NCBI RefSeq assembly: GCF_050920415.1
Contig: NZ_CP169309.1
From: Escherichia coli
GTDB taxonomy: Bacteria > Pseudomonadota > Gammaproteobacteria > Enterobacterales > Enterobacteriaceae
Reading direction: 5' to 3' (one strand)
Length of the DNA stretch: 64,000 bases
In this document: piece by piece, positions 1,396 to 19,520 of the stretch
Position numbering within the stretch: position 1 is the stretch's first letter
Layout of the letters: each line of letters opens with the position of its first letter
The notes under the pieces: model-generated
Told to the model about the DNA's origin: nothing
What the model saw: only the letters and a program-made list of their open reading frames with translations
Databases searched by the model: none
Program-made: the position numbers and the translations under genes

Positions 1396-1412
1396 CGCTC
1401 ATCTTTTAATCA

Positions 1413-1985
1413 TTACGCCGGTTTTTGCTGCTTTTTTATCGCTTGCGGCAGGTCTGCCAGGCTATTTAACACCCAATCCGCCGCGTTTTCTGCTTCAGGC
1501 GTAATAGGTTTTCCCGTACGCACCAGCACTTTTGTTCCCACGTTCGCCGCAGCCGCTGCCTGCATATCTTCTAATTTATCGCCCACCATATAAGAAGCAG
1601 CCATATCAATATGTAAATAATCGCGTGCTGACAAAAGCATCCCCGGATGTGGTTTGCGGCAATCGCAGACCTGACGAAACTCTTCAACACTACCCTGCGG
1701 ATGATGCGGGCAATAATAGATGCCATCCAGATCGACATCGCGGTCCGCCAGCGACCAGTCCATCCACTCGGTCAGCGTTTCAAACTGTGCTTCAGTAAAT
1801 TTACCGCGAGCAATGCCAGACTGGTTGGTTACTACCACCAGCGCAAAGCCCATTTTTTTTAGCTCGCGCATGGCGTCAATAACACCGTCGATAAATTCAA
1901 AGTTGTCGATCTCATGGACATAGCCGTGATCGACATTAATGGTGCCATCACGGTCAAGAAAAATTGCGGGTACGCTCTTCGCCAC
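1413..1985 (-). CDS. gmhB: D-glycero-beta-D-manno-heptose-1,7-bisphosphate 7-phosphatase (HAD family)
   Basis: 190-aa [20 protein letters not shown]... with HAD motif DxDGT. GTG start. Lies immediately upstream of the rrn promoters. Confidence 0.95.
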
Positions 1986-2074
1986 CTTTTATAGCTCCTT
2001 AATAAGGCATGTGACGCTAGTATCGCATGTTTCGACCTGCAAGAAAGTGCTCTTCGCATAAACCTGATTGATTT

Positions 2075-2106
2075 AGACGTCTGGATGCCTTAACATCCAT
2101 TTCATT
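2075..2106. promoter_or_regulatory. Tandem met boxes (MetJ operator) in the metN promoter region
   Basis: Four contiguous 8-bp units AGACGTCT GGATGCCT TAACATCC ATTTCATT, the first a perfect met-box consensus, about 70-100 nt upstream of metN. Confidence 0.7.
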
Positions 2107-2172
2107 GACGGCTTTGACCGTTTCAGGCATTCGAAATGCCACGACTAACTTAATGACGATAATAAATAATCA

Positions 2173-3204
2173 ATGATAAAACTTTCGAATATCACCAAAG
2201 TGTTCCACCAGGGCACCCGCACCATCCAGGCGTTGAACAACGTCAGCCTGCATGTGCCAGCTGGACAAATTTATGGCGTTATCGGTGCCTCAGGCGCGGG
2301 TAAAAGTACGCTTATCCGTTGTGTAAACCTGCTGGAGCGCCCAACCGAGGGTAGCGTGCTGGTCGATGGTCAGGAACTGACCACGCTGTCAGAATCCGAG
2401 TTGACCAAAGCTCGCCGCCAGATTGGTATGATTTTCCAGCATTTTAACCTGCTCTCTTCGCGCACTGTTTTTGGCAACGTGGCACTGCCGCTGGAGCTGG
2501 ACAACACGCCGAAAGACGAGATTAAACGTCGCGTGACAGAATTACTGTCATTGGTTGGTCTTGGCGATAAGCATGATAGTTACCCGTCTAACCTTTCCGG
2601 TGGGCAGAAACAACGTGTGGCGATTGCCCGTGCGTTAGCCAGCAATCCCAAAGTATTGCTGTGTGATGAGGCCACCAGCGCGCTGGACCCGGCAACAACA
2701 CGTTCTATTCTCGAACTGCTGAAAGACATCAATCGTCGTCTGGGTTTGACGATTCTGTTGATCACCCACGAAATGGACGTTGTGAAGCGCATTTGTGATT
2801 GCGTGGCGGTGATCAGTAATGGCGAGTTGATCGAGCAGGACACGGTAAGTGAAGTGTTCTCGCATCCGAAAACGCCGCTAGCGCAGAAGTTTATTCAGTC
2901 GACCCTGCATCTGGATATCCCGGAAGACTATCAGGAACGACTGCAAGCGGAACCATTCGCTGACTGCGTGCCGATGCTGCGTCTGGAGTTTACCGGTCAA
3001 TCGGTCGATGCCCCGCTTCTTTCTGAAACCGCGCGTCGTTTCAACGTCAATAACAACATTATTAGCGCGCAGATGGATTACGCCGGTGGCGTTAAGTTCG
3101 GCATCATGCTGACTGAAATGCACGGCACACAACAAGATACGCAAGCCGCCATTGCCTGGCTGCAGGAACACCATGTAAAAGTAGAGGTACTGGGTTATGT
3201 CTGA
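2173..3204 (+). CDS. metN: Methionine ABC transporter, ATP-binding subunit
   Basis: 343-aa ORF with Walker [10 protein letters not shown] and ABC signature LSGGQKQRV. Overlaps metI by 8 nt. Confidence 0.97.
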
Positions 3205-3850
3205 GCCGATGATGTGGCTGCTGGTTCGTGGCGTATGGGAAACGCTGGCAATGACCTTCGTATCCGGTTTTTTTGGTTTTGTGATTGGTCTGCCGGTTGG
3301 CGTCCTGCTTTATGTCACGCGTCCGGGGCAAATTATTGCTAACGCGAAGCTGTATCGTACCGTTTCTGCGATTGTGAACATTTTCCGATCCATCCCGTTC
3401 ATTATCTTGCTGGTATGGATGATTCCGTTTACTCGCGTTATTGTCGGTACATCGATTGGTTTGCAGGCAGCGATTGTTCCGCTGACAGTTGGTGCAGCAC
3501 CGTTTATTGCCCGTATGGTCGAGAACGCTCTGCTGGAGATCCCAACCGGGTTAATTGAAGCTTCCCGCGCAATGGGTGCTACGCCGATGCAGATCGTGCG
3601 CAAAGTGCTGTTACCGGAGGCGTTGCCAGGTCTGGTGAATGCAGCAACTATCACCCTGATTACTCTGGTCGGTTATTCCGCAATGGGTGGCGCAGTCGGT
3701 GCCGGTGGTTTAGGTCAGATTGGCTATCAGTATGGCTACATCGGCTACAACGCGACGGTGATGAATACGGTACTGGTATTGCTGGTCATTCTGGTTTATT
3801 TAATTCAGTTCGCAGGCGACCGCATCGTCCGGGCTGTCACTCGCAAGTAA
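3197..3850 (+). CDS. metI: Methionine ABC transporter permease
   Basis: 217-aa hydrophobic ORF in the metNIQ arrangement. Confidence 0.96.
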
Positions 3851-3889
3851 CGTTCAACACAACATAAATAATTGAAGAAGGAATAAGGT

Positions 3890-4705
3890 ATGGCGTTCAA
3901 ATTCAAAACCTTTGCGGCAGTGGGAGCCCTGATTGGATCACTGGCACTGGTAGGCTGCGGTCAGGATGAAAAAGATCCAAACCACATTAAAGTCGGCGTG
4001 ATTGTTGGTGCCGAACAGCAGGTTGCAGAAGTCGCGCAGAAAGTCGCGAAAGACAAATATGGCCTGGACGTTGAGCTGGTAACCTTCAACGACTATGTTC
4101 TGCCAAACGAAGCATTGAGCAAAGGCGATATCGACGCCAACGCCTTCCAGCATAAACCGTACCTTGATCAGCAACTGAAAGATCGTGGCTACAAACTGGT
4201 CGCAGTAGGCAACACTTTTGTTTATCCGATTGCTGGTTACTCCAAGAAAATCAAATCACTGGATGAACTGCAGGATGGTTCGCAGGTTGCCGTGCCAAAC
4301 GACCCAACTAACCTTGGTCGTTCACTGCTGCTGCTGCAAAAAGTGGGCTTGATCAAACTGAAAGATGGCGTTGGCCTGTTGCCAACAGTTCTTGATGTTG
4401 TTGAGAACCCAAAAAACCTGAAAATTGTTGAGCTGGAAGCACCGCAGCTGCCGCGCTCTCTGGACGATGCGCAAATCGCTCTGGCGGTTATCAACACCAC
4501 CTATGCCAGCCAGATTGGCCTGACTCCGGCGAAAGACGGTATCTTTGTCGAAGATAAAGAGTCTCCGTACGTAAACCTGATCGTGACGCGTGAAGATAAT
4601 AAAGACGCAGAGAACGTGAAGAAATTCGTCCAGGCTTATCAGTCTGACGAAGTTTACGAAGCAGCGAACAAAGTGTTTAACGGTGGCGCTGTTAAAGGCT
4701 GGTAA
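3890..4705 (+). CDS. metQ: Methionine-binding lipoprotein (ABC substrate-binding protein)
   Basis: 271-aa ORF with lipoprotein signal ...LALVGC. NlpA-family binding protein. Confidence 0.96.
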   Translation: MAFKFKTFAAVGALIGSLALVGCGQDEKDPNHIKVGVIVGAEQQVAEVAQKVAKDKYGLDVELVTFNDYVLPNEALSKGDIDANAFQHKPYLDQQLKDRGYKLVAVGNTFVYPIAGYSKKIKSLDELQDGSQVAVPNDPTNLGRSLLLLQKVGLIKLKDGVGLLPTVLDVVENPKNLKIVELEAPQLPRSLDDAQIALAVINTTYASQIGLTPAKDGIFVEDKESPYVNLIVTREDNKDAENVKKFVQAYQSDEVYEAANKVFNGGAVKGW

Positions 4706-4742
4706 TTTTTAGGCTGTTTCCACAATTTGTAATATCATTCAG

Positions 4743-4771
4743 GACGGGCGCTTGCCCGTCTTGTCATTTTT
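4743..4771 (+). terminator. Rho-independent terminator downstream of metQ
   Basis: GACGGGC-GCTT-GCCCGTC hairpin followed by TTGTCATTTTT. Confidence 0.8.
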
Positions 4772-4822
4772 ACAAGCTCCTGATTCAATATTGACGTTTT
4801 GATCATACATTGAGGAAATACT

Positions 4823-5227
4823 ATGCGTGCTTTACCGATCTGTTTAGTAGCACTCATGCTAAGCGGCTGTTCCATGTTAAGCAGATCCCCTGTCGAACCC
4901 GTTCAAAGCACTGCACCCCAGCCGAAAGCGGAGCCTGCAAAACCGAAAGCACCGCGCGCCGCGCCGGTCCGAATTTATACCAATGCAGAAGAATTAGTCG
5001 GCAAACCATTCCGCGATCTCGGTGAAGTCAGTGGCGATTCTTGCCAGGCCTCTAATCAGGACTCTCCGCCGAGCATTCCAACCGCGCGTAAGCGGATGCA
5101 AATCAATGCCTCTAAAATGAAAGCCAATGCGGTATTACTGCATAGCTGCGAAGTTACCAGCGGTACGCCAGGCTGCTATCGTCAGGCTGTATGTATCGGT
5201 TCTGCGCTTAACATTACGGCGAAATGA
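4823..5227 (+). CDS. rcsF: Outer-membrane lipoprotein RcsF (Rcs phosphorelay sensor)
   Basis: 134-aa ORF with lipobox ...MLSGC and a Pro/Ala/Lys-rich linker. Overlaps the next gene by 4 nt (ATGA). Confidence 0.95.
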   Translation: MRALPICLVALMLSGCSMLSRSPVEPVQSTAPQPKAEPAKPKAPRAAPVRIYTNAEELVGKPFRDLGEVSGDSCQASNQDSPPSIPTARKRMQINASKMKANAVLLHSCEVTSGTPGCYRQAVCIGSALNITAK

Positions 5228-5931
5228 GCAGTTTCCAGTTCGAGCAAATAGGCGTTATTCGCTCGCCCTATAAAGAAAAATTCGCCGTTCCGCGCCAGCC
5301 AGGTCTGGTAAAAAGCGCCAACGGTGAACTGCATCTCATTGCTCCCTACAACCAGGCCGACGCCGTACGCGGCCTGGAGGCGTTCAGCCATTTATGGATA
5401 CTTTTCGTCTTTCATCAAACGATGGAAGGCGGCTGGCGCCCAACTGTGCGTCCGCCTCGTCTTGGTGGTAATGCCAGAATGGGCGTTTTCGCCACACGCT
5501 CTACTTTCCGTCCTAATCCGATTGGTATGTCGCTGGTAGAGCTGAAAGAGGTTGTTTGCCATAAAGACAGCGTGATTCTGAAGCTTGGCAGTCTGGATCT
5601 GGTCGATGGGACGCCAGTGGTGGATATCAAACCGTATCTCCCCTTTGCCGAATCGCTTCCCGATGCCAGCGCCAGCTATGCGCAAAGTGCACCAGCGGCA
5701 GAGATGGCGGTGAGTTTTACCTTAGAGGTCGAAAAGCAGCTTTTGACACTGGAGAAGCGATATCCGCAGTTAACGCTGTTTATCCGCGAAGTACTGGCGC
5801 AGGACCCGCGTCCAGCCTATCGTAAAGGTGAGGATACGGGCAAAACCTATGCCGTCTGGCTGCATAATTTTAACGTTCGCTGGCGCGTCACCGACGCTGG
5901 TTTTGAAGTCTTTGCGCTGGAACCGCGTTAA
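5224..5931 (+). CDS. trmO: tRNA (adenine37-N6)-methyltransferase TrmO (YaeB/TsaA family)
   Basis: 235-aa ORF MSSFQFEQIGVIRSPYKEKFAVPRQPG..., YaeB family. Confidence 0.93.
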   Translation: MSSFQFEQIGVIRSPYKEKFAVPRQPGLVKSANGELHLIAPYNQADAVRGLEAFSHLWILFVFHQTMEGGWRPTVRPPRLGGNARMGVFATRSTFRPNPIGMSLVELKEVVCHKDSVILKLGSLDLVDGTPVVDIKPYLPFAESLPDASASYAQSAPAAEMAVSFTLEVEKQLLTLEKRYPQLTLFIREVLAQDPRPAYRKGEDTGKTYAVWLHNFNVRWRVTDAGFEVFALEPR

Positions 5932-6041
5932 ATTCGCGCCCTTCTCTTTTGACATTTCTTTTGCACTGGTAAACTAAATCACTTTTTTTGTCCCAGGCTC
6001 GCCTTGAGCCTGCTCTACCTTCCAACTGGAACCGTAACAAC

Positions 6042-7760
6042 ATGCGTACTAGCCAATACCTGCTCTCCACTCTTAAGGAGACACCTGCCGACGCCGAGGT
6101 GATCAGCCATCAGCTGATGTTGCGCGCCGGGATGATCCGCAAGCTGGCCTCCGGGTTATACACCTGGCTGCCGACCGGCGTGCGCGTTCTGAAAAAAGTC
6201 GAAAACATCGTGCGTGAAGAGATGAACAACGCCGGTGCGATCGAGGTGTTAATGCCGGTGGTTCAGCCATCTGAACTGTGGCAAGAGAGTGGTCGTTGGG
6301 AACAGTATGGCCCGGAATTGCTGCGTATTGCTGACCGTGGTGACCGTCCGTTCGTACTTGGCCCAACTCATGAAGAAGTGATTACCGACCTGATTCGTAA
6401 CGAGCTGAGCTCTTACAAACAGCTGCCGCTGAACTTCTATCAGATCCAGACCAAGTTCCGTGATGAAGTGCGCCCGCGTTTCGGCGTCATGCGTTCCCGC
6501 GAATTCCTGATGAAAGATGCTTACTCTTTCCATACCTCTCAGGAATCCCTGCAGGAAACCTACGATGCAATGTATGCGGCCTACAGCAAAATCTTCAGCC
6601 GCATGGGGCTGGATTTCCGCGCCGTACAGGCCGATACCGGTTCTATCGGCGGCAGCGCCTCTCACGAATTCCAGGTGCTGGCGCAGAGCGGTGAAGACGA
6701 TGTGGTCTTCTCCGACACCTCTGACTATGCAGCGAACATTGAGCTGGCAGAAGCTATCGCGCCGAAAGAACCGCGCGCTGCTGCTACCCAGGAAATGACG
6801 CTGGTTGATACGCCGAACGCGAAAACCATCGCTGAACTGGTAGAACAATTCAATCTGCCGATTGAAAAAACGGTTAAGACTCTGCTGGTTAAAGCCGTTG
6901 AAGGCAGTAGCTTCCCGCTGGTTGCGCTGCTGGTTCGCGGTGACCACGAGCTGAACGAAGTTAAAGCTGAGAAACTGCCGCAGGTTGCAAGCCCGCTGAC
7001 TTTCGCGACTGAAGAAGAAATTCGTGCCGTGGTTAAAGCCGGTCCGGGTTCACTGGGTCCGGTAAACATGCCGATTCCGGTAGTAATTGACCGTACTGTT
7101 GCGGCGATGAGTGATTTTGCTGCTGGTGCTAACATCGATGGCAAACACTACTTCGGTATCAACTGGGATCGCGATGTCGCAACCCCGGTAGTTGCGGATA
7201 TCCGTAACGTAGTGGCTGGCGATCCAAGCCCGGATGGACAGGGTACGCTGCTGATCAAACGTGGTATCGAAGTCGGTCACATCTTCCAGCTGGGTACTAA
7301 GTACTCCGAAGCACTTAAAGCCTCCGTTCAGGGTGAAGATGGCCGTAATCAGATCCTGACTATGGGTTGCTACGGTATCGGCGTAACGCGCGTAGTAGCT
7401 GCGGCAATTGAGCAGAACTACGACGAACGCGGCATCGTATGGCCTGACGCTATCGCACCTTTCCAGGTGGCGATTCTGCCGATGAACATGCACAAATCCT
7501 TCCGCGTACAGGAGCTGGCTGAGAAACTGTATAGCGAACTGCGCGCACAGGGTATCGAAGTGCTGCTGGATGACCGCAAAGAACGTCCGGGCGTGATGTT
7601 TGCTGATATGGAACTGATCGGTATTCCGCACACTATCGTGTTGGGCGACCGTAACCTCGACAACGACGATATCGAATACAAATACCGTCGTAACGGTGAG
7701 AAACAGTTAATTAAGACCGGTGACATCGTCGATTATCTGGTGAAACAGATTAAAGGCTGA
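6042..7760 (+). CDS. proS: Prolyl-tRNA synthetase
   Basis: Protein [20 protein letters not shown]... The track ORF begins 18 codons upstream at a TTG; the ATG at 6042 matches the known N-terminus. Confidence 0.96.
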
Positions 7761-7767
7761 TGCCAGA

Positions 7768-7797
7768 AAGGGTCCTGAATTTCAGGACCCTTTTTTA
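7768..7797 (+). terminator. Rho-independent terminator downstream of proS
   Basis: GGGTCCTGAA-TTT-CAGGACCC hairpin followed by TTTTTT. Confidence 0.85.
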
Positions 7798-7812
7798 CAT
7801 GGATTGTATAAA

Positions 7813-8637
7813 ATGGATAAACCAAAGGCGCACTGGTGCCTGCTTCTCCCCTGCTTTCTTTCACTTTCGGCCTGTACCGTTGACATCAGCCAGCCAGACT
7901 CATCAGCCACAGCGGTAGATGCCGCGGCAAAAACATGGGCAGTCAAATTCCAGCATCAAAGCTCTTTCACCGAACAATCAATAAAAGAAATAACAGAACC
8001 TGATCTCAAACCCGGCGATTTACTGTTCTCCTCAAGCCTTGGGGTAACCTCATTTGGTATCCGCGTCTTCAGCACTTCCTCTGTGAGCCACGTTGCAATC
8101 TTTTTGGGAGATAATAACGTTGCAGAAGCGACAGGAGATGGCGTCCAGATTGTTTCCCTTAAAAAAGCGATGAAGCATAGTGATAAGCTTTTCGTCTTAC
8201 GAGTTCCGGATCTTACCCCGCAACAAGCCACAGAAATTACCGCGTTTGCCAATAAAATCAAAGATAGCGGTTATAACTATCGCGGCATTGTCGAATTTAT
8301 TCCATTTATGGTGACTCGCCAGATGTGCTCACTGAATCCGTTCTCCGAGGATTTTCGCCAACAGTGCGTCAGCGGCCTGGCGAAAGCGCAGTTAAGCAGT
8401 GTGAGCGAAGGAGACAAAAAGTCGTGGTTTTGTTCGGAATTTGTCACTGATGCATTTGCCAAAGCCGGACATCCGCTTACGCTGGCACAGTCTGGCTGGA
8501 TTAGCCCTGCCGATCTGATGCATATGCGTACTGGCGATGTCTCTGCGTTTAAGCCAGAAACGCAGTTAGAGTATGTCGGGCACTTGAAGCCAGGGATTTA
8601 TATTAAAGCGAGTCGCTTTGTTGGTCTGACTCGGTGA
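7813..8637 (+). CDS. yaeF: Predicted lipoprotein, permuted papain-fold (YiiX/YaeF family) putative peptidase or amidase
   Basis: 274-aa ORF from the ATG at 7813 (a TTG lies 3 codons upstream). Lipobox LSLSAC. His (SHVAIF) precedes Cys (WFCSEF), consistent with a permuted NlpC/P60 arrangement. Confidence 0.85.
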   Translation: MDKPKAHWCLLLPCFLSLSACTVDISQPDSSATAVDAAAKTWAVKFQHQSSFTEQSIKEITEPDLKPGDLLFSSSLGVTSFGIRVFSTSSVSHVAIFLGDNNVAEATGDGVQIVSLKKAMKHSDKLFVLRVPDLTPQQATEITAFANKIKDSGYNYRGIVEFIPFMVTRQMCSLNPFSEDFRQQCVSGLAKAQLSSVSEGDKKSWFCSEFVTDAFAKAGHPLTLAQSGWISPADLMHMRTGDVSAFKPETQLEYVGHLKPGIYIKASRFVGLTR

Positions 8638-8642
8638 TAAAA

Positions 8643-8660
8643 GCCGGAGAATGCTCCGGC
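8643..8660. terminator. Hairpin between convergent yaeF and nlpE (possible bidirectional terminator)
   Basis: GCCGGAG-AATG-CTCCGGC perfect 7-bp stem in a 29-bp convergent spacer. Flanking T-tracts are weak. Confidence 0.45.
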
Positions 8661-8666
8661 ATTCAA

Positions 8667-9377
8667 TTACTGCCCCAAACTACTGCAATCCTGGTTTGGG
8701 TAAAATTTACCTGCCGTATCGGGCGCTAATACTTTGGTTGGCGCACCGTTATCCGGATTAGTCTCAAGCGTAAAGTGACCTTCTACTGACAGTAACACCG
8801 GTTTTTCACTGTTACCGCGCGCAGCCAGGTAGCTACGCTCCAGCTCTGCATTATTCGCTACCATGAAACGTTTTCCGGTCGCACAATCAGTAAAGGTTGC
8901 CGCATCAGCCATATAAAAATACATGCCGCGTAGAGTCATCGGCGTCACTGGCAGGCTGGATTTTGCCGGTTCCAGTGTATAGTTGAACTGCGATTCGATC
9001 GGATTGCCTTCACGATCGAGCATCTCCAACGCATCTCCTTTCGCCCGATAATATGACTTTTCACCTTTACTGTCGGTTAATACCAGTTTGTCAGCGGTTC
9101 GCGCCCATGTACCGTAGGAGGCGAAAGAGAAAGGTTCTTCACGAGCCCCCAGATAACGCTCATTCATCACCCAGGTTCCATCTTTTTCGAGGAACAGAGA
9201 GGTTTCGATACCTTCGCAATCAGCACACGGCAGCACGCCGCGCCAGCTTTGCGGCATCGGCTTCAGTTCAGCGGCCTGCGCCGGAGAAAGCGTATCGACT
9301 TCGGCTCGATTATTACATCCCATCAGAGTAAAGAGGCTGATTACAGCCATCGCTGTCACTATCGCTTTTTTCACCAT
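8667..9377 (-). CDS. nlpE: Outer-membrane lipoprotein NlpE (Cpx pathway activator)
   Basis: 236-aa ORF MVKKAIVTAMAVISLFTLMGC... with lipobox and a CxxC motif (CADC). Confidence 0.95.
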   Translation of the reverse strand: MVKKAIVTAMAVISLFTLMGCNNRAEVDTLSPAQAAELKPMPQSWRGVLPCADCEGIETSLFLEKDGTWVMNERYLGAREEPFSFASYGTWARTADKLVLTDSKGEKSYYRAKGDALEMLDREGNPIESQFNYTLEPAKSSLPVTPMTLRGMYFYMADAATFTDCATGKRFMVANNAELERSYLAARGNSEKPVLLSVEGHFTLETNPDNGAPTKVLAPDTAGKFYPNQDCSSLGQ

Positions 9378-9390
9378 CCATTCCTTCTTT

Positions 9391-9813
9391 TTATTCCCGA
9401 CCGCCGCGCACTTTGCCGCGCAACGCCTTCACGCTTGATTTTTGTGCTTTCGATACCAGCCTGCGCTCTTTTGATGCGCGGGTAGGTCGTGTCGGTCGTC
9501 GGGCTTTTTGTTCTGTTGTTAATTCTTTAATCACTGCCACCAACCGTGCCAGCGCCGCTTCGCGGTTCAGTTCCTGGCTACGGTATTCCTGTGCCTTGAT
9601 GACTATCACTCCATCGCTGCTAATCAGATGATGGCTGGCAGCGAGCAGGCGCTCTTTGTAATACTCTGGCAGGCTGGACGCTCGAATGTCAAAACGCAGA
9701 TGAATAGCCGTTGAGGTCTTATTAACATGCTGTCCGCCCGCGCCCTGTGCACGAATAGCAGTGATCTCAAACTCGCCATTGGGGATAGCAACATGTCGGG
9801 AAATCACAATCAT
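9391..9813 (-). CDS. arfB: Alternative ribosome-rescue factor / peptidyl-tRNA hydrolase ArfB (YaeJ)
   Basis: 140-aa ORF with GGQ motif (AGGQHVNKT) and a basic C-terminal tail. Overlaps the yaeQ stop by 4 nt. Confidence 0.95.
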
Positions 9814-10355
9814 GAAGGTTGTTGCCAGACGGTTAAGTTCACTTCCAGATTATTCTTGTCATCCGATAACCAGATCACGCCATCCTGAATCGTTGCCTGC
9901 AGCGTCATGGTACGATCGGCAAAGGCGCTCACTTTTGCCAGTTGCTCGTCGTCCAGATACCAGACGGAAAGATTGGCAAACTGCGCACATTTACTCTGAT
10001 TTTGCTGCCACCAGATTTGCGCCGCCCGACTATTATAGGCAAACAGCGCCACTTCTGCGGCCTGGGTGCAGGCTTTCTTAATCCGCCGCTCATCCGGCAA
10101 TCCCAGTTCAATCCACAAATCAATGCCCAGATGATCATTACGCAGCCACGCTTCCGGCTCATCATCGGCACACAAACCTCGGGTAAATTGCAGACGTTCA
10201 TCAGCATATTTCAGCCACGCCAGCAGGCGCAGCATCATGCGCTCCTGGGTTTCTGAAGGATGGCGCGCCAGCGTCAGAGAGGCATCGAGAAACTGGTTGC
10301 GGTCGAGATCGGCCACATTAACCGTCGCTTTATAAATTGTCGCTTTAAGCGCCAT
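9810..10355 (-). CDS. yaeQ: YaeQ family protein (PD-(D/E)XK-like fold, function unknown)
   Basis: 181-aa [24 protein letters not shown]..., conserved enterobacterial YaeQ. Confidence 0.9.
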
Positions 10356-10520
10356 AAGAAAACTCCTTTCGAATCAGGAGGCCATTGTAACGGAATACGT
10401 GCAGTTGCGACGCTGATATTGCAGAAATGAGTGTGGTATAGTCACCTTGCGAAACAGAGTTTATCTTCGTAGGCTTAGACTTGCATCCACGGTTAAGTCA
10501 GAGTGCTGACAGGAGGGCAT

Positions 10521-10721
10521 GTGGAAAAATATTGTGAGTTAATACGCAAGCGGTACGCGGAAATCGCCAGCGGAGACTTAGGATACGTTCCGGACGCGCT
10601 GGGCTGCGTTTTGAAAGTGCTGAATGAAATGGCTGCCGACGATGCCCTTTCTGAGGCTGTCAGGGAAAAAGCAGCATACGCTGCGGCAAACTTACTGGTG
10701 AGCGATTATGTCAATGAATGA
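10521..10721 (+). CDS. yaeP: Small conserved protein YaeP (UPF0253)
   Basis: 66-aa protein from a GTG start ([12 protein letters not shown]...). The track ORF begins 6 codons upstream at an ATG. 3' end overlaps rof. Confidence 0.8.
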
Positions 10722-10968
10722 TACGTATCAACCAATCAATTGTGATGATTACGATAATCTTGAGCTCGCCTGCCAGCATCATTTAATGCTGACACTTGAG
10801 CTGAAAGATGGCGAAAAATTGCAGGCGAAGGCCAGCGATTTAGTCTCCCGCAAAAATGTGGAGTATCTGGTCGTCGAGGCCGCTGGTACAACCCGCGAAC
10901 TGCGTCTGGATAAAATTACCAGCTTTAGCCACCCGGAAATCGGTACGGTGGTGGTGAGCGAGTCCTGA
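10714..10968 (+). CDS. rof: Rho-binding antiterminator Rof (YaeO)
   Basis: 84-aa protein [23 protein letters not shown]... An alternative ATG lies 2 codons upstream at 10708. Confidence 0.9.
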
Positions 10969-10976
10969 TTGACTTT

Positions 10977-11009
10977 CGCCGGATGCGACGTTTGATGCGT
11001 CTTATCCGG
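10977..11009. repeat. REP (repetitive extragenic palindrome) between convergent rof and tilS
   Basis: GCCGGATGCGACG...CGTCTTATCCGGC palindromic unit matching the REP consensus. Confidence 0.65.
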
Positions 11010-11020
11010 CTTTCACTTAA

Positions 11021-12316
11021 CTAAGCGTTTCGCCGCCAGACAAAACTTACGCCATTCTCACCTTCAGCCACACCTTCTTGCGTCACAAATACCTCTGCCG
11101 CTGCAATCAGCGTTTCGCCATAAAACAGCAGTGGCGTGGTGTCACGCAACCACGGCGGTACGCCCAGTTCCTGCCAGATTTTCTTTAACTTACGCCCACC
11201 ATTGCGCCCGACAATATGCAGCAATCCTGGCGCTTTGAAACGCACGCTGACCGCTTCGTCTGCACGCGGAGGGCGAATATCGCCTCCCGCAGTAAGCTGT
11301 ACACTTCCCAGCGCCGCCGGTAATTCCAGCGGTTGTAACCACGTCTGCCACGGCACAATGGTTTCGCTTTGCCCAGTGACGGATTTAATCCACCACAGTT
11401 GCGATTGATAGCGGCGGATTTCAAACGCCCCCAAACGTAAACAGGGGGAAGCATCTTCTCGCGCCAGCGCCACTTCCTGCCAGATCCTCACCAACGCGTC
11501 GCGGGAAGGCATCGGTGCATTCTGCCCTGCAAGCCAGCGGCGAATAATCGCCGCGCGACGGGCATCACTCATCGCCAGCATTGGCGCAATCTGCAGCGTT
11601 CCCTGCGGCGTTTGACAGTGTGCTAAATCATCCACCAGCAGTTCATCCAACAGGCTCTCTTGCTCAGCACAAAGTGCGGCGCTGCGGGCCGTTGCTTCGG
11701 CAAAATGCGGCCAACGCTGCTGCAATAACGGCACAACGCGCAGGCGCAGGAAGTTACGATCGTATGAGTCGTCCTGATTACTTTCGTCTTCAATCCAACG
11801 TAAACCATGCGCCAACGCCCACTGCTCCAGTTCTCCCCGCGTGCGGGCGAGCAACGGGCGGATAAGCCGCGTTCCGGCAAACTCCGAGATTTCCGCCATA
11901 GCCGAAAGCCCTGCAGGACCGCTACCGCGTTTTAGCGCCAGCAGAAACGTTTCACATTGATCGTCGAGATGTTGCGCTGTAACCAGCACTTCACCAGGTA
12001 ACAGGGTACGAGCAAATGCCTGATAACGTGCCTGCCGCGCCTGGGCCTCAATACCTAGCCCCTCTTGCGCAAGTTGCACACGCTCAACCACCAGCGGCAC
12101 CTGCCACTGCTGGCAGATATTTTCACAATGTTTCACCCAAGCATCAGCGTTGGCACTTAAACCGTGATGCACATGAATAGCGCGCAGGATGACGCTCGGA
12201 TTTTCCGTCCGCCACTGCACCAACTGATGCAGCAGAACGGTGGAGTCAAGCCCGCCGCTAAAGGCCACCAGAATCTGGCGTGAGATGAGAAGTTGTCTAT
12301 TGAGAGTGAGTGTCAT
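11021..12316 (-). CDS. tilS: tRNA(Ile)-lysidine synthetase
   Basis: 431-aa ORF with PP-loop motif SGGLDS near the N-terminus. Confidence 0.95.
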
Positions 12317-12380
12317 GATGGTGCGATTTTACAGTAGCAATGCCCGGCACGTTACCGGGCAAATATGGCGATGACAAGCC

Positions 12381-12770
12381 TTACTGCTCATACAGTTCCA
12401 ACGGCAGTCCGTCCGGATCGTTAAAGAATGTGAAGCGCTTTTGCGTGTAGGGATCGACACGTATGGCTTCACATTTCACGTTATGGCTTTCAAGGTGCGC
12501 CACTGCCGCATCGATATCATCAACGCTAAAAGCCAGATGACGCAGGCCGCAAGCTTCCGGTCGGCTGGGGCGCTCCGGCGGGAACGGAAATGAGAAAAGC
12601 TCAATCACATATTGCCCATTAAGCGCCAAATCCCCTTTCCACGAATCGCGCGCTTCGCGATAGACTTCGCTTTGCAGCGTGAAACCGAGAATATCGCAGT
12701 AGAAAGCTTTGCTCACCGCATAATCCGTCGCAATAATCGCAATATGATGAACCTGTTTTAAACCCAGCAT
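12381..12770 (-). CDS. yaeR: VOC/glyoxalase-family protein
   Basis: 129-aa protein MLGLKQVHHIAIIATDYAVSKAFY... The track ORF is extended 9 codons upstream. Confidence 0.88.
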   Translation of the reverse strand: MLGLKQVHHIAIIATDYAVSKAFYCDILGFTLQSEVYREARDSWKGDLALNGQYVIELFSFPFPPERPSRPEACGLRHLAFSVDDIDAAVAHLESHNVKCEAIRVDPYTQKRFTFFNDPDGLPLELYEQ

Positions 12771-12826
12771 AACGTCTCCTTTATTTGTTAACAGCACGTT
12801 ACTCGCCCGGAAGCCGCTCTGGCAAG

Positions 12827-14968
12827 TTATCCCGCCATTTTTAGGACTCGTACGCGGTAAACGCCATCTCCGTCCTGTTTCGCGCCGTGAATATCCGTTT
12901 CAAAGCCGGGGTAATGTTGCCCTACGGAACAAAGCATCAGTAGAAAATCGAGTACTGTGCGGCTCTCTTTGGTCAGCATTTCTCCAGGCATCAACAGCGG
13001 TACGCCCGGTGGATAAGGCAGGATCATATTTGCCGATACTCTACCGACCAGTTGTTCCAGCGCAATGGTTTCTACTTCACCTTTAATCTGCCGTTGCCAT
13101 GCCTGATGTGGCGTCATGATCATCTCCGGCAAAGTATCAAATGCCCGCAACATCAAACCGGGAAGATCGTGTTTACGAATCAGCTTATGTATCCCTTGCG
13201 CGAGATCCTGAATACGCATATTGCGATAAAAATCGGGATCTTCTGCATAGAGATCGGGCAGCATATTTTTGATCCGCAGGTTGAGATCGTAAGAGCGCTT
13301 AAATTCCGTCAACCCACGCAATAATCCCATTGCTTTGGTTTTATCGATGCCAATACTAAAGAGAAACAGCAGGTTATAAGGGCCGGTTTTCTCTACTACG
13401 ATCCCACGTTCGTCGAGGAATTTTGCCACCAGCGCCGCAGGGATCCCCTCATCGCTCATATTGCCCTGCTCGTCCATCCCCGGTGTCAAAATAGTGACTT
13501 TAACCGGATCGAGAAACATATGATCGGCATCCGCATCGTTAAAGCCGTGCCACTGTTCGCCAGGCGCAACGGGCCAGCATTCGGCTTCATCCACCTGCGG
13601 CGGTTGCCAGATATCGAAAAACCAGCCGTCAGACTCTTCCCGCAGCCGCTGGACCTCTTTGCGAAAATGCAGCGCTCGTTCTACTGAACGGTTAATCAGC
13701 CGTTTGCCCGGATTACCACGCAGCATCGCCGCCGCTGTCTCAACCGAAGCAACAATGGGATAACTGGGCGAAGTGGTGGTATGCATCATAAAGGCTTCAT
13801 TAAACGCCTCTTCGTCGTACTCACCTTTAATGTGGATCAGTGATGCCTGCGACAACGCCGCCAGCATTTTGTGGGTCGATTGCGTTTCGAAGAAAACTTT
13901 TCCTGCCACCCGATCGCCACTCATACCACTTTTGCCCTGATAGATCGGATGAAAATGAGTATACGGGACCCAGGCGGAATCGAAGTGGATCGAGGGGACA
14001 TCCAGCGTCTGTTTGATCCAGTCGGTGTTGTAGAGCAAGCCATCATAGGTGGAGTTGGTGATCACCGCATGAACCGGCCATTGTGCCTGCGTGGTAGCAG
14101 CGACTTTCTCTTCGATACTGTCGCGGGTAAATTCTCGTCGCGGGATCCCGCCCAGAATCCCCAACGCATTACGTGTTGGTTTTAGCCAGACCGGCACGAC
14201 ATCGTTCATCATCAACAGATGCGCCAGCGATTTATGACAATTGCGGTCAATTAACAGCGTACTGCCGGATGGCGCGGCGTACATACCCACAATTTTGTTC
14301 GACGTCGATGTTCCGTTGGTGACGATATAACTCTGTTCCGCGCCGAAAGTCCGTGAGATGTATTCTTCCGCTTCCAGATGTGGCCCGGTGTGGTCGAGCA
14401 ACGAACCTAGCTCGGTTACCGAAATAGAGACGTCCGCCTTGAGGGTATTCCCGCCGAAAAAATCATAAAACAGACAGCCTACCGGGCTTTTCTGATACGC
14501 GGTGCCGCCCATATGCCCCGGCGTACAAAAGGTGTACTTCCGCTCTTTGACATAAGTAAACAAGGCTTTAGTGAATGGCGGGGTAATGTTATCGAGATAT
14601 TCGTTGGTGTACTGACGCATACGAATGGCGATATCTTCTGCCTGCCCCAGCGCATATTCAAAGAACCAGAGCGCCATCCGCATATCCTGCACGCTGACAT
14701 CCATCGTCGAGTGAGTATTGATGAAGGCATAAAGCGGGAGATATTCATTAAGTTGATTGATATCGCTACATAAATCGAGACTGTATTCATCCCAGTCAAA
14801 AATCACGCCGCATATTCGTGGGTTGTGTTCGATAAATTTCAGCAAATCAACGCTGTTTTGTGGCCAGATAATCTGAAAACCTTGCGCCACCAGCGCCGAC
14901 TCCAGTTCTTTGATGGGCTCATCTTTATAAAAGACGCCATGCGGTCCCATAATGGCAATGATATTCAT
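12827..14968 (-). CDS. ldcC: Lysine decarboxylase, constitutive (LdcC)
   Basis: 713-aa ORF MNIIAIMGPHGVFYKDEPIKELESAL..., Orn/Lys/Arg decarboxylase family with PLP lysine region (SxHK). Confidence 0.95.
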   Translation of the reverse strand: MNIIAIMGPHGVFYKDEPIKELESALVAQGFQIIWPQNSVDLLKFIEHNPRICGVIFDWDEYSLDLCSDINQLNEYLPLYAFINTHSTMDVSVQDMRMALWFFEYALGQAEDIAIRMRQYTNEYLDNITPPFTKALFTYVKERKYTFCTPGHMGGTAYQKSPVGCLFYDFFGGNTLKADVSISVTELGSLLDHTGPHLEAEEYISRTFGAEQSYIVTNGTSTSNKIVGMYAAPSGSTLLIDRNCHKSLAHLLMMNDVVPVWLKPTRNALGILGGIPRREFTRDSIEEKVAATTQAQWPVHAVITNSTYDGLLYNTDWIKQTLDVPSIHFDSAWVPYTHFHPIYQGKSGMSGDRVAGKVFFETQSTHKMLAALSQASLIHIKGEYDEEAFNEAFMMHTTTSPSYPIVASVETAAAMLRGNPGKRLINRSVERALHFRKEVQRLREESDGWFFDIWQPPQVDEAECWPVAPGEQWHGFNDADADHMFLDPVKVTILTPGMDEQGNMSDEGIPAALVAKFLDERGIVVEKTGPYNLLFLFSIGIDKTKAMGLLRGLTEFKRSYDLNLRIKNMLPDLYAEDPDFYRNMRIQDLAQGIHKLIRKHDLPGLMLRAFDTLPEMIMTPHQAWQRQIKGEVETIALEQLVGRVSANMILPYPPGVPLLMPGEMLTKESRTVLDFLLMLCSVGQHYPGFETDIHGAKQDGDGVYRVRVLKMAG

Positions 14969-15022
14969 GTGTTCCTCCTGGAAAATCCTTCCTTAATCAT
15001 AGCCCGCTCAAACCATGGCGAT

Positions 15023-15052
15023 AAAAAAGGGCCACCGAAGTGACCCTTTTCA
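15023..15052 (-). terminator. Rho-independent terminator downstream of accA
   Basis: Minus-strand GGGTCAC-TTCG-GTGGCCC hairpin followed by TTTTTTAT. Confidence 0.75.
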
Positions 15053-15065
15053 GAACATTTGCTGA

Positions 15066-16025
15066 TTACGCGTAGCCGTAGCTCATCAGGCGCTGATAAC
15101 GACGATTTTTTAAATCTTCAGTGCTTAACACGTCGAGATCGGCCAGATCCGCCAGCAGCTGCGCTTTCAGAGACGCCGCCATCGCTTCCGGGTTACGGTG
15201 AGCACCGCCCAGCGGTTCCGGGATGATGGAGTCAATCAGTTTCAGTTCTTTCAAACGCGGAGCGATGATCCCCATCGCTTCAGCCGCCAGCGGTGCTTTG
15301 TCGGCGCTCTTCCACAGAATGGACGCGCAACCTTCCGGCGAAATAACGGAATAGGTGCTGTATTGCAACATATTCACTTTATCGCCCACGCCAATCGCCA
15401 GTGCGCCGCCAGAACCACCTTCACCGATAACGGTACAAATAGTCGGTACGCTAAGGCGAGACATTTCACGCAGGTTGCGTGCAATGGCTTCAGACTGACC
15501 GCGCTCTTCTGCGCCCACGCCCGGATAAGCCCCCGGGGTGTCGATAAAGGTGATGATTGGCATCTTAAAGCGTTCAGCCATTTGCATCAGACGCAGTGCT
15601 TTGCGGTAACCTTCTGGCGCTGGCATACCAAAGTTACGGCGAATTTTTTCTTTGGTTTCACGACCTTTTTGATGACCAATGATCATCACCGGACGACCAT
15701 CGAGACGGGCGATACCCCCGACGATAGCTTTATCGTCTGCATACGCGCGGTCGCCAGCCAGTTCGTCAAATTCATCAAAGGCCAGGCGAACGTAATCCAG
15801 GGTATAAGGACGCTGTGGATGGCGTGCCAGTTGCGCAATCTGCCATGCACCGAGATCGGCGAAGATTTTACGCGTCAGTTCTACGCTCTTTTCACGCAGA
15901 CGATGCACTTCTTCATCGATATTAATATCCAGTTTCTCATCCTGGCGGCTAACCGCAGTCAGAGAATCGATTTTCGCTTCCAGCTCTGCAATCGGCTGTT
16001 CAAAATCAAGGAAATTCAGACTCAT
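15066..16025 (-). CDS. accA: Acetyl-CoA carboxylase carboxyltransferase alpha subunit
   Basis: 319-aa [26 protein letters not shown].... Confidence 0.97.
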
Positions 16026-16037
16026 AGTATTCCTGTA

Positions 16038-19000
16038 TTAGTCAAACTCCAGTTCCACCTGCTCCGAACCAATGAGGCCACGGAGATCGTTTAATAAACG
16101 ATCGCTCGGAGAGACACGCCACGTCGCGCCAAAACGCAACCGCGCGCGTGCATCCGCCCTCTGATAGTAGAGATGTACTGGAATTGTCCCAGAGCGGTGG
16201 GGTTCCAGAGACTGACGGAGTCGGTTTAAAAGCTGGTCATCAATTTGCCTGTCCGTCAGCGAGATAGCAAGCCCGCGAGCATATTTTTCCCGGGCTTCGT
16301 CAATATCCATCACTTCGCGAGCGGTCATTTTAAGCCCACCGCTGAAGTCATCAAAGCTGACCTGTCCGCTGACGATAAGTATGCGGTCTTTTTCCAGCAA
16401 TTGCTGGTATTTATCCAGGGCGTCAGTAAACAACATCACTTCCAGCCGCCCGGAACGGTCATCCAGCGTGCAGATACCGATACGATTGCCGCGCTTGGTG
16501 ACCATAACCCGCGCAGCAACAACGAGCCCCGCAGCCGTGGTGACTTTACCACGTTCTGTCGGGTGCATGTCTTTCAGCCTTACGCCTCCGACATAACGCT
16601 CAATCTCTTTTAAATACTGGTTGATAGGGTGTCCCGTCAGGTACAGACCTAACGTTTCACGTTCCCCATCTAACACCACCTGCTCCGGCCACGGTTGGCA
16701 ACTGGCGTAGGATTGTTCAATTTGTTCCGGCTCTTCTGCCAGCACGCCGAACATATCGGCCTGACCGATGGCTTCTGCTTTCGCGTGTTGATCAGCCGCC
16801 TTTAACGCATCGCCCAGCGAGTTCATCAGCGCCGCGCGGTGTGGCCCAAGACGGTCAAACGCCCCGGACATAATCAGTTTTTCCAGCACTCGCCGGTTTA
16901 ACTTTTTGGTGTCTGTACGGGCGCAGAGATCAAACAATTCACGGAAATAGCCGCCTTTATTACGGGCTTCAATGATCGCCTCAATCGGACCTTCACCTAC
17001 CCCTTTGATCGCGCCAATACCATACACGATTTCGCCGTCGTCGTTGACGTGGAAATGGTAAAGACCGGAGTTTATATCTGGTGGCAGGATTTTCAGCCCC
17101 ATCCGCCAGCACTCATCCACCAGGCCCACCACCTTCTCGGTGTTGTCCATATCGGCGGTCATTACTGCCGCCATAAACTCCGCCGGATAGTGCGCTTTCA
17201 GCCATAACGTTTGATATGAAACCAAAGCATAGGCCGCAGAGTGCGATTTGTTAAATCCGTACCCAGCGAATTTCTCCACCAGGTCGAAGATTTTCATCGC
17301 CAGTTCGGCGTTGATCCCGTTCTTTTCTGCGCCTTCAGCAAATACAGAACGCTGCTTGGCCATCTCTTCCGGCTTTTTCTTACCCATCGCACGACGCAGC
17401 ATATCCGCGCCACCGAGGGTATAACCAGAAAGCACCTGGGCAATCTGCATGACCTGTTCCTGATACAGGATGATGCCGTAGGTTGGCTCCAGTACCGGTT
17501 TCAGGCTTTCATGCTGCCACTGCACATCCGGATAGGAGATCTCTTCGCGACCATGTTTACGGTCGATAAAGTTATCCACCATCCCTGATTGCAACGGACC
17601 AGGGCGGAACAATGCCACCAGTGCGATCATATCTTCGAAGCAGTCAGGTTGCAGACGCTTGATCAGGTCCTTCATGCCGCGCGATTCAAGCTGGAATACC
17701 GCAGTGGTTTCCGAGCGTTGCAGCATGTCGAAACTTTTCTTGTCATCCAGCGGGATCGCGGCGATATCCAGCGGCGGCTCGCCATTCTTCGCCCGCCGCT
17801 TGTTGATCATCTCCAGCGCCCAGTTGATGATGGTGAGCGTACGCAAACCAAGGAAGTCGAACTTCACCAGCCCGGCGTATTCAACGTCGCTTTTATCAAA
17901 CTGGGTAACCGGATGTTTGCCCTCTTCATCGCAATAAAGCGGCGCAAAATCGGTAATTTTGGTCGGCGCGATAACCACCCCACCGGCGTGCTTACCAGCG
18001 TTACGGGTGACCCCTTCCAGTTTGCGCGCCATGTCGATCAGCGCCTTAACTTCTTCGTCCGCTTCGTAGATTTCCGGCAGTTGCGGCTCGGCTTCAAACG
18101 CTTTCGCCAGCGTCATCCCCGGATCGGGCGGGATCAGTTTCGAGATACGATCGACAAAGCCGTACGGATGCCCCAGCACGCGGCCTACGTCGCGGATCAC
18201 CGCTTTTGCCGCCATTGTACCGAAGGTGATGATCTGCGATACCGCATCACGGCCGTACATATCTGCCACGTGTTCGATAACCTGGTCGCGTTTTTCCATA
18301 CAGAAGTCAACGTCGAAGTCAGGCATGGAGACACGTTCCGGGTTAAGGAAACGTTCGAACAGCAGGTCAAACTCCAGCGGATCGAGGTCGGTGATTTTTA
18401 ACGCGTAAGCCACCAGTGACCCTGCACCAGAACCACGGCCTGGCCCTACCGGTACGCCGTTATCTTTCGACCACTGGATAAATTCCATAACGATGAGGAA
18501 GTAACCCGGGAAGCCCATCTGGTTGATAACCTGAAGTTCAGTATCCAGACGCTCGTCATACTCCGGGCGACGCTTAAGACGTTCTTCCTCGTCAGGGAAT
18601 AAAAATGCCAGACGCTCTTCCAGGCCTTCTTTTGCACGCTTGACCAGATAATCTTCGGTGCTCATGTCCCCGGTCGGGAACTGCGGCAGGAAGTATTCAC
18701 CCAGACGCACAGTCACGTTACAGCGTTTGGCGATCTCAACAGTGTTGGCAAGGGCTTCGGGGATGTCGGCAAACAGCTCGCACATCTCCTCTTCGCTGCG
18801 CATATATTGCTGCGGCGAATAATTACGCGGGCGTTTGGGATCGTCGAGAGTAAAGCCGTCATGGATCGCGACGCGGATTTCGTGCGCGTCAAAGTCGCTG
18901 CTGTCGATAAAGCGCACGTCATTGGTCGCCACGACGGGCAAACCGCGCGCTTCCGCCAGTTCCACTGCCGCGTGCAGATAACTTTCTTCGTCCGGCCTGC

Positions 19001-19520
19001 CGGTTCGGATCAGTTCGAGAAAATAGCGATCCGGGAAGTGCTCTTCATAAAACGCAACGCACTCATCTACCAGCGCGCTGTTACCACGCAAAAGACTGCG
19101 CCCGACGTCGCCCATGCGCCCGCCGGAAAGGAGGATCAGCCCTTCGTTTAATTCGATAAGCCAGTCGCGATCGATGATAGGCCCGGCGGCACCGTACCCG
19201 CGCTGATACGCTTTTGAGATCAGCAACGTCAGATTCTGATAGCCGATATTGTTCGCCGCCAGCACCGTCAGGTGGGTTAACTCATCACCCAGCAGGTCGC
19301 ACTGGACATTAAAATCTGCCCCGACGATGGGCTTAATCCCTGCGCCATGTCCCGCTCCGTAGAACTTCACCAGACCGCAAAGGTTGGTGAAATCGGTGAT
19401 CGCCAGTGCTGGCATACCCAACGCCGCCGCCTTTTTTACCAGCGGTGCGGTTTTGGCCAGGCCATCGATCATCGAGTAGTCGCTGTGCACCCGCAGGTGT
19501 ACGAAACGTGGTTCAGACAT
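16038..19520 (-). CDS. dnaE: DNA polymerase III alpha subunit
   Basis: 1160-aa [27 protein letters not shown]... with PHP domain N-terminus. Confidence 0.98.

Follow-up and report, generated by a model that had tools for sequence, protein, structure and literature searches.

Identity and conservation of yaeF

We analyzed a 64,000-nucleotide (nt) stretch of Escherichia coli DNA (contig NZ_CP169309.1 of assembly GCF_050920415.1; hereafter, the window) and focused on yaeF, a gene located on the plus strand between proS (positions 6042 to 7760, plus strand) and nlpE (8667 to 9377, minus strand), where the initial annotation of this DNA had also placed it. The coding sequence (7813 to 8637) starts with an ATG at 7813, comprises 274 codons, and ends with a TGA at 8635 to 8637, yielding a product of 274 amino acids (aa). 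The same span is given by the list of open reading frames, by the RefSeq annotation of a record that is 100% identical over positions 7700 to 8750 (product "yaeF: YaeF family permuted papain-like enzyme"), and by the NCBIfam equivalog model NF008552, which matched residues 1 to 274 of 274 with 523.5 bits, well above its cutoff of 279. Searches against Pfam returned PF05708 (Peptidase_C92; E value, 3.3e-8) and a partial match to NLPC_P60 (PF00877; E value, 3e-5) around the His region of the protein.

Comparison with E. coli K-12 gave a ratio of nonsynonymous to synonymous substitution rates (dN/dS) of 0.13 for the whole gene and of 0.08 for the mature part, with a dS of 0.19; the 15 amino acid differences are distributed between the hydrophobic region (h-region) of the signal peptide, with 6, and the 253 mature residues, with 9. 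Of 5426 complete E. coli genomes, 5419 contained at least 80% of a 1051-base query (7700 to 8750). Orthologs were present in Citrobacter, Klebsiella, Enterobacter, Serratia, Chania, Yersinia, and Pantoea, and more distant ones were found in Neisseriales and Burkholderiales. With matches far beyond chance and clear purifying selection, yaeF is a real gene.

Only 2 of the 5426 genomes (strains MFDS1022581 and N96) matched this query with an identity of at least 99%, and the GC content at third codon positions (GC3) of yaeF is 49%, versus 53 to 60% in three neighboring genes. We considered whether yaeF was unusually divergent or horizontally acquired and rejected both ideas: all the genes tested in the window (over positions 1410 to 19520) were 92 to 99% identical to their K-12 counterparts, with dS values of about 0.1 to 0.3, and yaeF has a dS like that of its flanks and a GC content that is only mildly low. 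That yaeF shows low identity with most E. coli sequences thus reflects the strain rather than the gene, and the window belongs to an Escherichia lineage that has diverged.

Public sources (RefSeq- and EcoCyc-style product names, PF05708, NF008552, and PMC3142127) already cover the gene and its family as well as the permutation and the lack of an assigned substrate. Our literature search found no functional study of YaeF or YiiX, in agreement with the initial annotation, which had described the target of YaeF as uncharacterized. The present analysis adds a residue-level catalytic assignment, a clade-specific insertion with a probable disulfide, the arrangement of terminators and promoter, and a link to multienzyme lytic proteins.

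A permuted set of predicted catalytic residues

We then assigned the catalytic residues of YaeF by comparison with two YaeF/YiiX-like permuted NlpC/P60 enzymes of the PF05708 family, YiiX from E. coli (PDB 2if6) and BcPPNE from Bacillus cereus (PDB 3kw0), for which the roles of the catalytic residues are documented (Xu et al. 2011; PMC3142127). A profile built from 53 family members matched E. coli YiiX with 97% probability, and the PDB chains 2if6 and 3kw0 were also aligned. The permuted NlpC/P60 catalytic domain covers approximately residues 60 to 260 (7990 to 8592, plus strand, like all the codons that follow). Within this domain, His93 (CAC, 8089 to 8091), the predicted catalytic base, aligns with YiiX His49; Glu105 (GAA, 8125 to 8127), the predicted third member of the triad, aligns with YiiX Glu64; and Tyr154 (TAT, 8272 to 8274), predicted to contact the oxyanion or the P1 carbonyl, aligns with YiiX Tyr115. 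Cys207 (TGT, 8431 to 8433) is the predicted nucleophile: the FCSE segment of YaeF lines up with ICSE in 3kw0 and YCSE in 2if6, the sites of the catalytic residues Cys154 and Cys128, respectively.

An alignment of 266 homologs to the family hidden Markov model showed that these columns are nearly invariant, with a His in 234 of 236 non-gap homologs at position 93, a Glu in 233 homologs (Asp in 6) at position 105, a Tyr in 215 (Phe in 19) at position 154, and a Cys in 214 of 217 non-gap homologs at position 207. The order His, Glu, Tyr, Cys is that of a permuted enzyme, and the canonical NlpC/P60 order, with the Cys N-terminal to the His, is not found in YaeF. The initial annotation had named the gene yaeF, placed it in the YaeF/YiiX-like family, and proposed a His-before-Cys arrangement from the motifs SHVAIF and WFCSEF, which are indeed present at residues 92 to 97 and 205 to 210. 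These proposals were borne out by the family models (NF008552 and PF05708), the profile alignment with YiiX, the residue conservation, and the fold comparison presented below.

YaeF is nevertheless distinct from the solved enzymes. Its structure-based identity to YiiX and BcPPNE is 25 to 26%, the equivalog model of YiiX gives it 21 bits for a cutoff of 216, and it differs from both proteins by its lipobox, a linker of ∼35 residues, a helical insertion of ∼40 residues with a Cys pair, and a C-terminal YVGHLK motif. The permuted enzymes that act on lipids (LRAT, PLAAT/HRASLS, Tox-Act1, TseH, LnsA, and Lnb/DUF4105) are more distant, with 11 to 23% identity; YaeF is a predicted housekeeping lipoprotein and neither a toxin nor a eukaryotic membrane enzyme. 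The second Cys that LRAT carries at +7 from the catalytic Cys is absent from YaeF, which has Ala214 at this position.

Predicted fold and a clade-specific insertion

An AlphaFold2 model of YaeF was built from a 53-sequence alignment. The mean predicted local distance difference test score (pLDDT) was 89, with values of 94 to 98 around the catalytic residues, and the predicted template modeling score (pTM) was 0.86. Structural superposition, which the initial annotation had suggested as a check, revealed the fold of YiiX. The fold comparison scored 19.2 for YiiX and 18.3 for BcPPNE (root mean square deviation of 2.1 Å in both cases), 8.2 for PLAAT4, 8.1 for TseH, 6.0 for RID, and about 5 for canonical NlpC/P60 enzymes, and Foldseek returned the same top matches. 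The model contains the five-stranded sheet, the helical subdomain, and the C-terminal strand completing the sheet that are seen in the solved members. From this fold match and the high pLDDT around both residues, we infer that Cys207 and His93 would adopt an active-site geometry.

The main peculiarity of the YaeF clade is a predicted helical hairpin of about residues 156 to 204 (8278 to 8424, plus strand), inserted between Tyr154 and Cys207 and modeled as two helices (residues 156 to 173 and 179 to 193). The Tyr and the Cys are 53 residues apart in YaeF, compared to 13 in YiiX and 27 in BcPPNE. The insertion occupies the place where the solved relatives build the S1 substrate pocket, and the S1-forming region of YiiX is replaced by predicted helices rich in hydrophobic residues (IVEFIPFMV). 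Two residues of the insertion, Cys172 (8326 to 8328) and Cys185 (8365 to 8367), are conserved across the clade, in lipoproteins and in the fused homologs described below alike, and they probably form a disulfide in periplasmic YaeF. The second clade motif, Y254-V-G-H257-L-K259 (8572 to 8589, plus strand), is nearly invariant and forms the last beta strand of the model.

A predicted outer-membrane lipoprotein

The N terminus of YaeF, MDKPKAHWCLLLPCFLSLSAC followed by TVD, reads as a type II (lipoprotein) signal peptide of 21 residues (7813 to 7875, plus strand). It is composed of a positively charged n-region (K3 and K5), a 12-residue h-region (W8 to S19), and a lipobox, L18-S19-A20-C21 (7864 to 7875), which conforms to the pattern [LVI][ASTVI][GAS]C and is followed by a Thr at position +2. 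The initial annotation had already pointed to a lipoprotein signal and to the motif LSLSAC (residues 16 to 21), and the comparison of homologs agrees with it: of 85 close full-length homologs, 78 retain a lipobox, 73 of them with a Thr at +2 and none with an Asp. Many short homologs (∼260 aa) retrieved with a profile of the fused domains, several of them from named Betaproteobacteria, also carry a lipobox. By the established +2 rule, YaeF is predicted to be an outer-membrane lipoprotein with Lol-dependent targeting, since the +2 residue is a Thr and not an Asp.

The h-region is variable: 6 of 11 positions between residues 7 and 17 (7831 to 7863) differ from K-12, and the lipobox is unchanged. 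Cys9 and Cys14 of the h-region are both absent from the K-12 protein.

Proposed mechanism and a possible fatty-acyl substrate

The catalytic steps that we propose rest on homology. YaeF would be exported, receive its lipid at Cys21, and be held by it at the outer membrane, on the periplasmic side. There, Cys207 would act as a nucleophile activated by His93, itself oriented by Glu105, with Tyr154 holding the scissile carbonyl. The resulting acyl-thioester on Cys207 would be resolved by water, in the case of a hydrolase, or by an acceptor, in the case of an acyltransferase. The S1 region, which defines the substrate, would be provided by the helical hairpin of the clade, probably stapled by its disulfide. 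Overall, YaeF is very probably a permuted papain-like lipoprotein thiol enzyme of the envelope, and our confidence is high for the family and the mechanism.

As for the substrate, all the characterized permuted NlpC/P60 enzymes act on fatty-acyl substrates (LRAT, PLAAT/HRASLS, LnsA, Lnb/DUF4105, and, from type VI secretion systems [T6SS], the effectors Tox-Act1 and TseH), and a hydrophobic tunnel of crystallized YiiX held a fatty acid. On the basis of these analogies, we favor a fatty-acyl ester or amide, belonging to a lipid or a lipoprotein of the envelope, as the substrate of YaeF. The enzyme would then work at the inner face of the outer membrane as a phospholipase A, a deacylase, or an acyltransferase. 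We give this reading about an even chance and prefer it to the cleavage of a peptidoglycan peptide bond, which we consider distinctly less probable; other protein or peptide targets, or near-dispensability, make up the rest.

Several points weigh against this picture. The fatty acid seen in YiiX cannot simply be carried over to YaeF, because YaeF forms its S1 region with an insertion that YiiX lacks. The 40 large multidomain homologs (≥435 aa) that we sampled have peptidoglycan hydrolases among their partner domains and no lipase. Lipidation and outer-membrane sorting of YaeF are predictions only, and a promoter scan of positions 7500 to 9000 detected no sigma-70-like promoter. Finally, our literature search yielded no biochemical or genetic datum on YaeF and no published enzyme assay; a search for b0193 gave nothing but unrelated catalogue numbers.

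YaeF-like domains in putative multienzyme lytic proteins

We looked for relatives of YaeF exhaustively in 1.84 billion representative proteins and obtained 710 of them. Outside Enterobacterales, many of the best matches were YaeF-like domains (30 to 40% identity over residues 60 to 260) in proteins of 435 to 1760 aa devoid of a signal peptide. Among the 40 large homologs sampled, the partner domains were Peptidase_C70 (13 cases), Amidase_2 (5 cases), Amidase_3 (4 cases), two kinds of trypsin-like domains (4 and 3 cases), phage lysozyme (2 cases), and PG_binding_1 (1 case), together with single proteins containing M15-type or VanY domains. AFDB neighbors of this type belong to Lysobacteraceae, and their annotations are those of amidases or serine proteases. 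Fused proteins from Lysobacteraceae and metagenomes (such as P0176, P0189, and P0134) resemble YaeF over the whole catalytic domain and share its Cys pair and its YVGHLK end; when the YaeF-like domain is C-terminal, the protein stops directly after this motif. Unlike YaeF, they have no lipobox (0 of 66), their domain starts with DIPLDPGxGGxSI, and their fusion partners are Peptidase_C70, amidase, lysozyme, M15, and trypsin domains. A second homolog search, with a profile of the fused-type domain, revealed no further architectures, as its best 120 matches were all short proteins, mostly lipoboxed and of betaproteobacterial type.

These fused proteins look like multienzyme lytic weapons, which fits a wall target and also a cocktail directed at both wall and membrane. 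They raise the possibility that YaeF is itself a peptidoglycan peptide hydrolase (endopeptidase or amidase) with a MepS- or NlpC-like role on a permuted topology. The closest homologs outside the lipoprotein clade are fused beside wall hydrolases, in a layout that resembles the amidase-plus-endopeptidase layout of endolysins, and AFDB neighbors are annotated as N-acetylmuramoyl-L-alanine amidases. Like YaeF as predicted here, MepS (Spr) and NlpC of E. coli are periplasmic cysteine enzymes of the papain-like type that carry a lipid anchor and belong to the same superfamily, and the outer-membrane anchoring predicted for YaeF is common to these two proteins. The His region of YaeF aligns with theirs (the PF00877 match and matches to 2k1g and 7v6s), and YaeF also matched phage tail lysins weakly, over their His region. 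However, no permuted NlpC/P60 enzyme has been shown to cut peptidoglycan, and TseH, for which an amidase function had earlier been assumed, showed the activity of a phospholipase. Moreover, the polar Asp-Arg pair of the canonical S1 site, which binds the peptide, reportedly gives way to hydrophobic pockets in permuted enzymes, and the multienzyme attack proteins could equally combine wall and membrane activities, as they also carry general proteases (Peptidase_C70, trypsin, and S8). Peptidoglycan is our second choice, and rather an unlikely one, behind the fatty-acyl substrate.

A further reading, which we consider rather unlikely, is that the YaeF clade forms a distinct branch of permuted NlpC/P60 enzymes, with a new substrate pocket created by its disulfide-stapled helical insertion. 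In Beta- and Gammaproteobacteria it would serve as a housekeeping lipoprotein of the outer membrane, and multienzyme attack proteins would employ it as a lytic module.

The three fused proteins examined for their context (P0176, P0189, and P0134) sit in conserved, unannotated gene clusters. In locus L003 (positions 3401 to 15681; GCA_053487615.1, JBRCLF010000134.1) and in the P0189 contig (JGI 3300050821), the cluster is conserved and otherwise unannotated: it starts with a sigma-54 activator, a DUF3467 gene, the multienzyme protein, and genes of ∼333, 86, and 259 aa and continues with a mycosin-like S8 protease and genes of ∼629, 344, 422, and 400 aa. Such multienzyme proteins combine the YaeF-like domain with Peptidase_C70, Amidase_2, or other lytic domains. 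The unannotated genes of L003 had no NCBIfam or PHROG match. The cluster may encode a system for export or attack that has not been described. In another locus (L011), such a fused protein is paired with an S8 protease gene and surrounded by many unannotated genes.

Metagenomes also contain stand-alone YaeF-like proteins of ∼200 aa without a signal peptide, which start with M-x-IPLDPGxGGRSI (L015, positions 8001 to 8636; P0247; and P0282 to P0298). A function of these proteins as T6SS effectors was not supported, since one of them lies in a housekeeping neighborhood next to uvrB, without secretion or immunity genes; the other homolog checked for such a context is on a 1.4-kb contig, too short to show its neighbors. 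Finally, the PHROG family phrog_1128 matches residues 53 to 238 of YaeF (E value, 2e-23). Its label, "enoyl-CoA hydratase/carnithine racemase-like" (in the moron and auxiliary metabolic gene category), probably reflects another domain of the 381-position profile.

Flanking signals and expression of yaeF

The initial annotation had attributed to yaeF its own terminator on each side. Hairpins are indeed present on both sides, and their placement and orientation make this description right only in part. The upstream one is an intrinsic terminator composed of a GC-rich hairpin (7765 to 7795) and a T6 run (7765 to 7796 in total, plus strand; folding energy of −27.4 kcal/mol, z score of −5.3). It belongs to proS because it lies between the proS stop codon and the yaeF ATG, which is located 17 nt past the end of the T run. 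K-12, Klebsiella, and Chania also have a hairpin at this position of the proS-yaeF gap, built from stems of different sequence, and the spacer as a whole (7761 to 7812) has nearly the same sequence in E. coli and Klebsiella. The downstream hairpin (8643 to 8660) lies in the 29-nt gap between the convergent stop codons of yaeF and nlpE. We folded both strands; the terminator scan lists the hairpin on the minus strand. It is oriented for nlpE, because the T run is on that strand; on the yaeF strand, the hairpin is followed by AUUCAAUU.

The yaeF-nlpE spacer (8638 to 8666), which has this single hairpin here, extends over 199 nt in K-12 (positions 10981 to 11179 of locus L002) and contains repetitive extragenic palindromic (REP)-like palindromes (GCCGGATAAGGCGTTTACGCCGCATCCGGCA). 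Several listed E. coli records match positions 7700 to 8750 in two pieces separated by a gap of ∼125 bp, which would fit such an insertion.

A TATAAA sequence just before the yaeF ATG was rejected as a promoter element, as it is too close to the start codon, and the Shine-Dalgarno sequence is weak (GGA). Because no promoter-like site was recognized, the terminator is close upstream, and the position of its hairpin is conserved, yaeF would owe most of its transcription, at a low level, to read-through from proS. No Rfam match was obtained around yaeF (5800 to 10600) at E values up to 1. NsrR sites have been reported adjoining yaeF in strain CFT073; we found none within two mismatches in the window or at comparable positions in K-12. 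Klebsiella and Chania have the same order proS-yaeF-nlpE, embedded in a larger block of synteny, but this conservation is confined to Enterobacterales, and the neighborhood is unrelated in other lineages, so that the gene context gives no operon clue to the function.

These features bear on a further alternative, that the substrate of YaeF is a protein or peptide distinct from both the wall and bulk lipid, for instance a specific envelope protein from or to which an acyl group is removed or transferred, or that it is a weakly expressed and nearly dispensable relic. The strong terminator 17 nt upstream, the lack of a recognizable sigma-70 promoter, the weak Shine-Dalgarno sequence, and the GC3 of 49% (against 53 to 60% in the three neighbors) would all suit a poorly expressed gene, and a Tn5 insertion in yaeF is viable. 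A relic is difficult to reconcile, however, with the clear purifying selection, the retention of all catalytic residues, the presence of the region in 5419 of 5426 E. coli genomes, and the homologs found across Enterobacterales and Betaproteobacteria. Regarding a specific peptide target, the lysine site of BcPPNE (Glu67 and Asp68) is not conserved, since it corresponds to Gly108 and Asp109 in YaeF and since K-12 has an Ala at position 109. We consider this alternative improbable and retain an active envelope enzyme, preferably acting on fatty-acyl groups, as the best explanation.

Implications for the envelope of E. coli

YaeF is a conserved E. coli envelope protein without an assigned function, and a Cys-His hydrolase located in the outer membrane could serve the remodeling of phospholipids or lipoproteins or the turnover of the cell wall, two processes that are both relevant as antibiotic targets. 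The assigned residues, the predicted disulfide, and the two classes of substrates make the question directly testable. If its substrate were peptidoglycan, YaeF would be the first permuted member of the superfamily shown to cut the wall. If YaeF instead remodels the acyl chains of lipoproteins or of outer-membrane phospholipids, it would be a new enzyme of envelope-lipid homeostasis, encoded beside nlpE, the gene of a lipoprotein-stress sensor.
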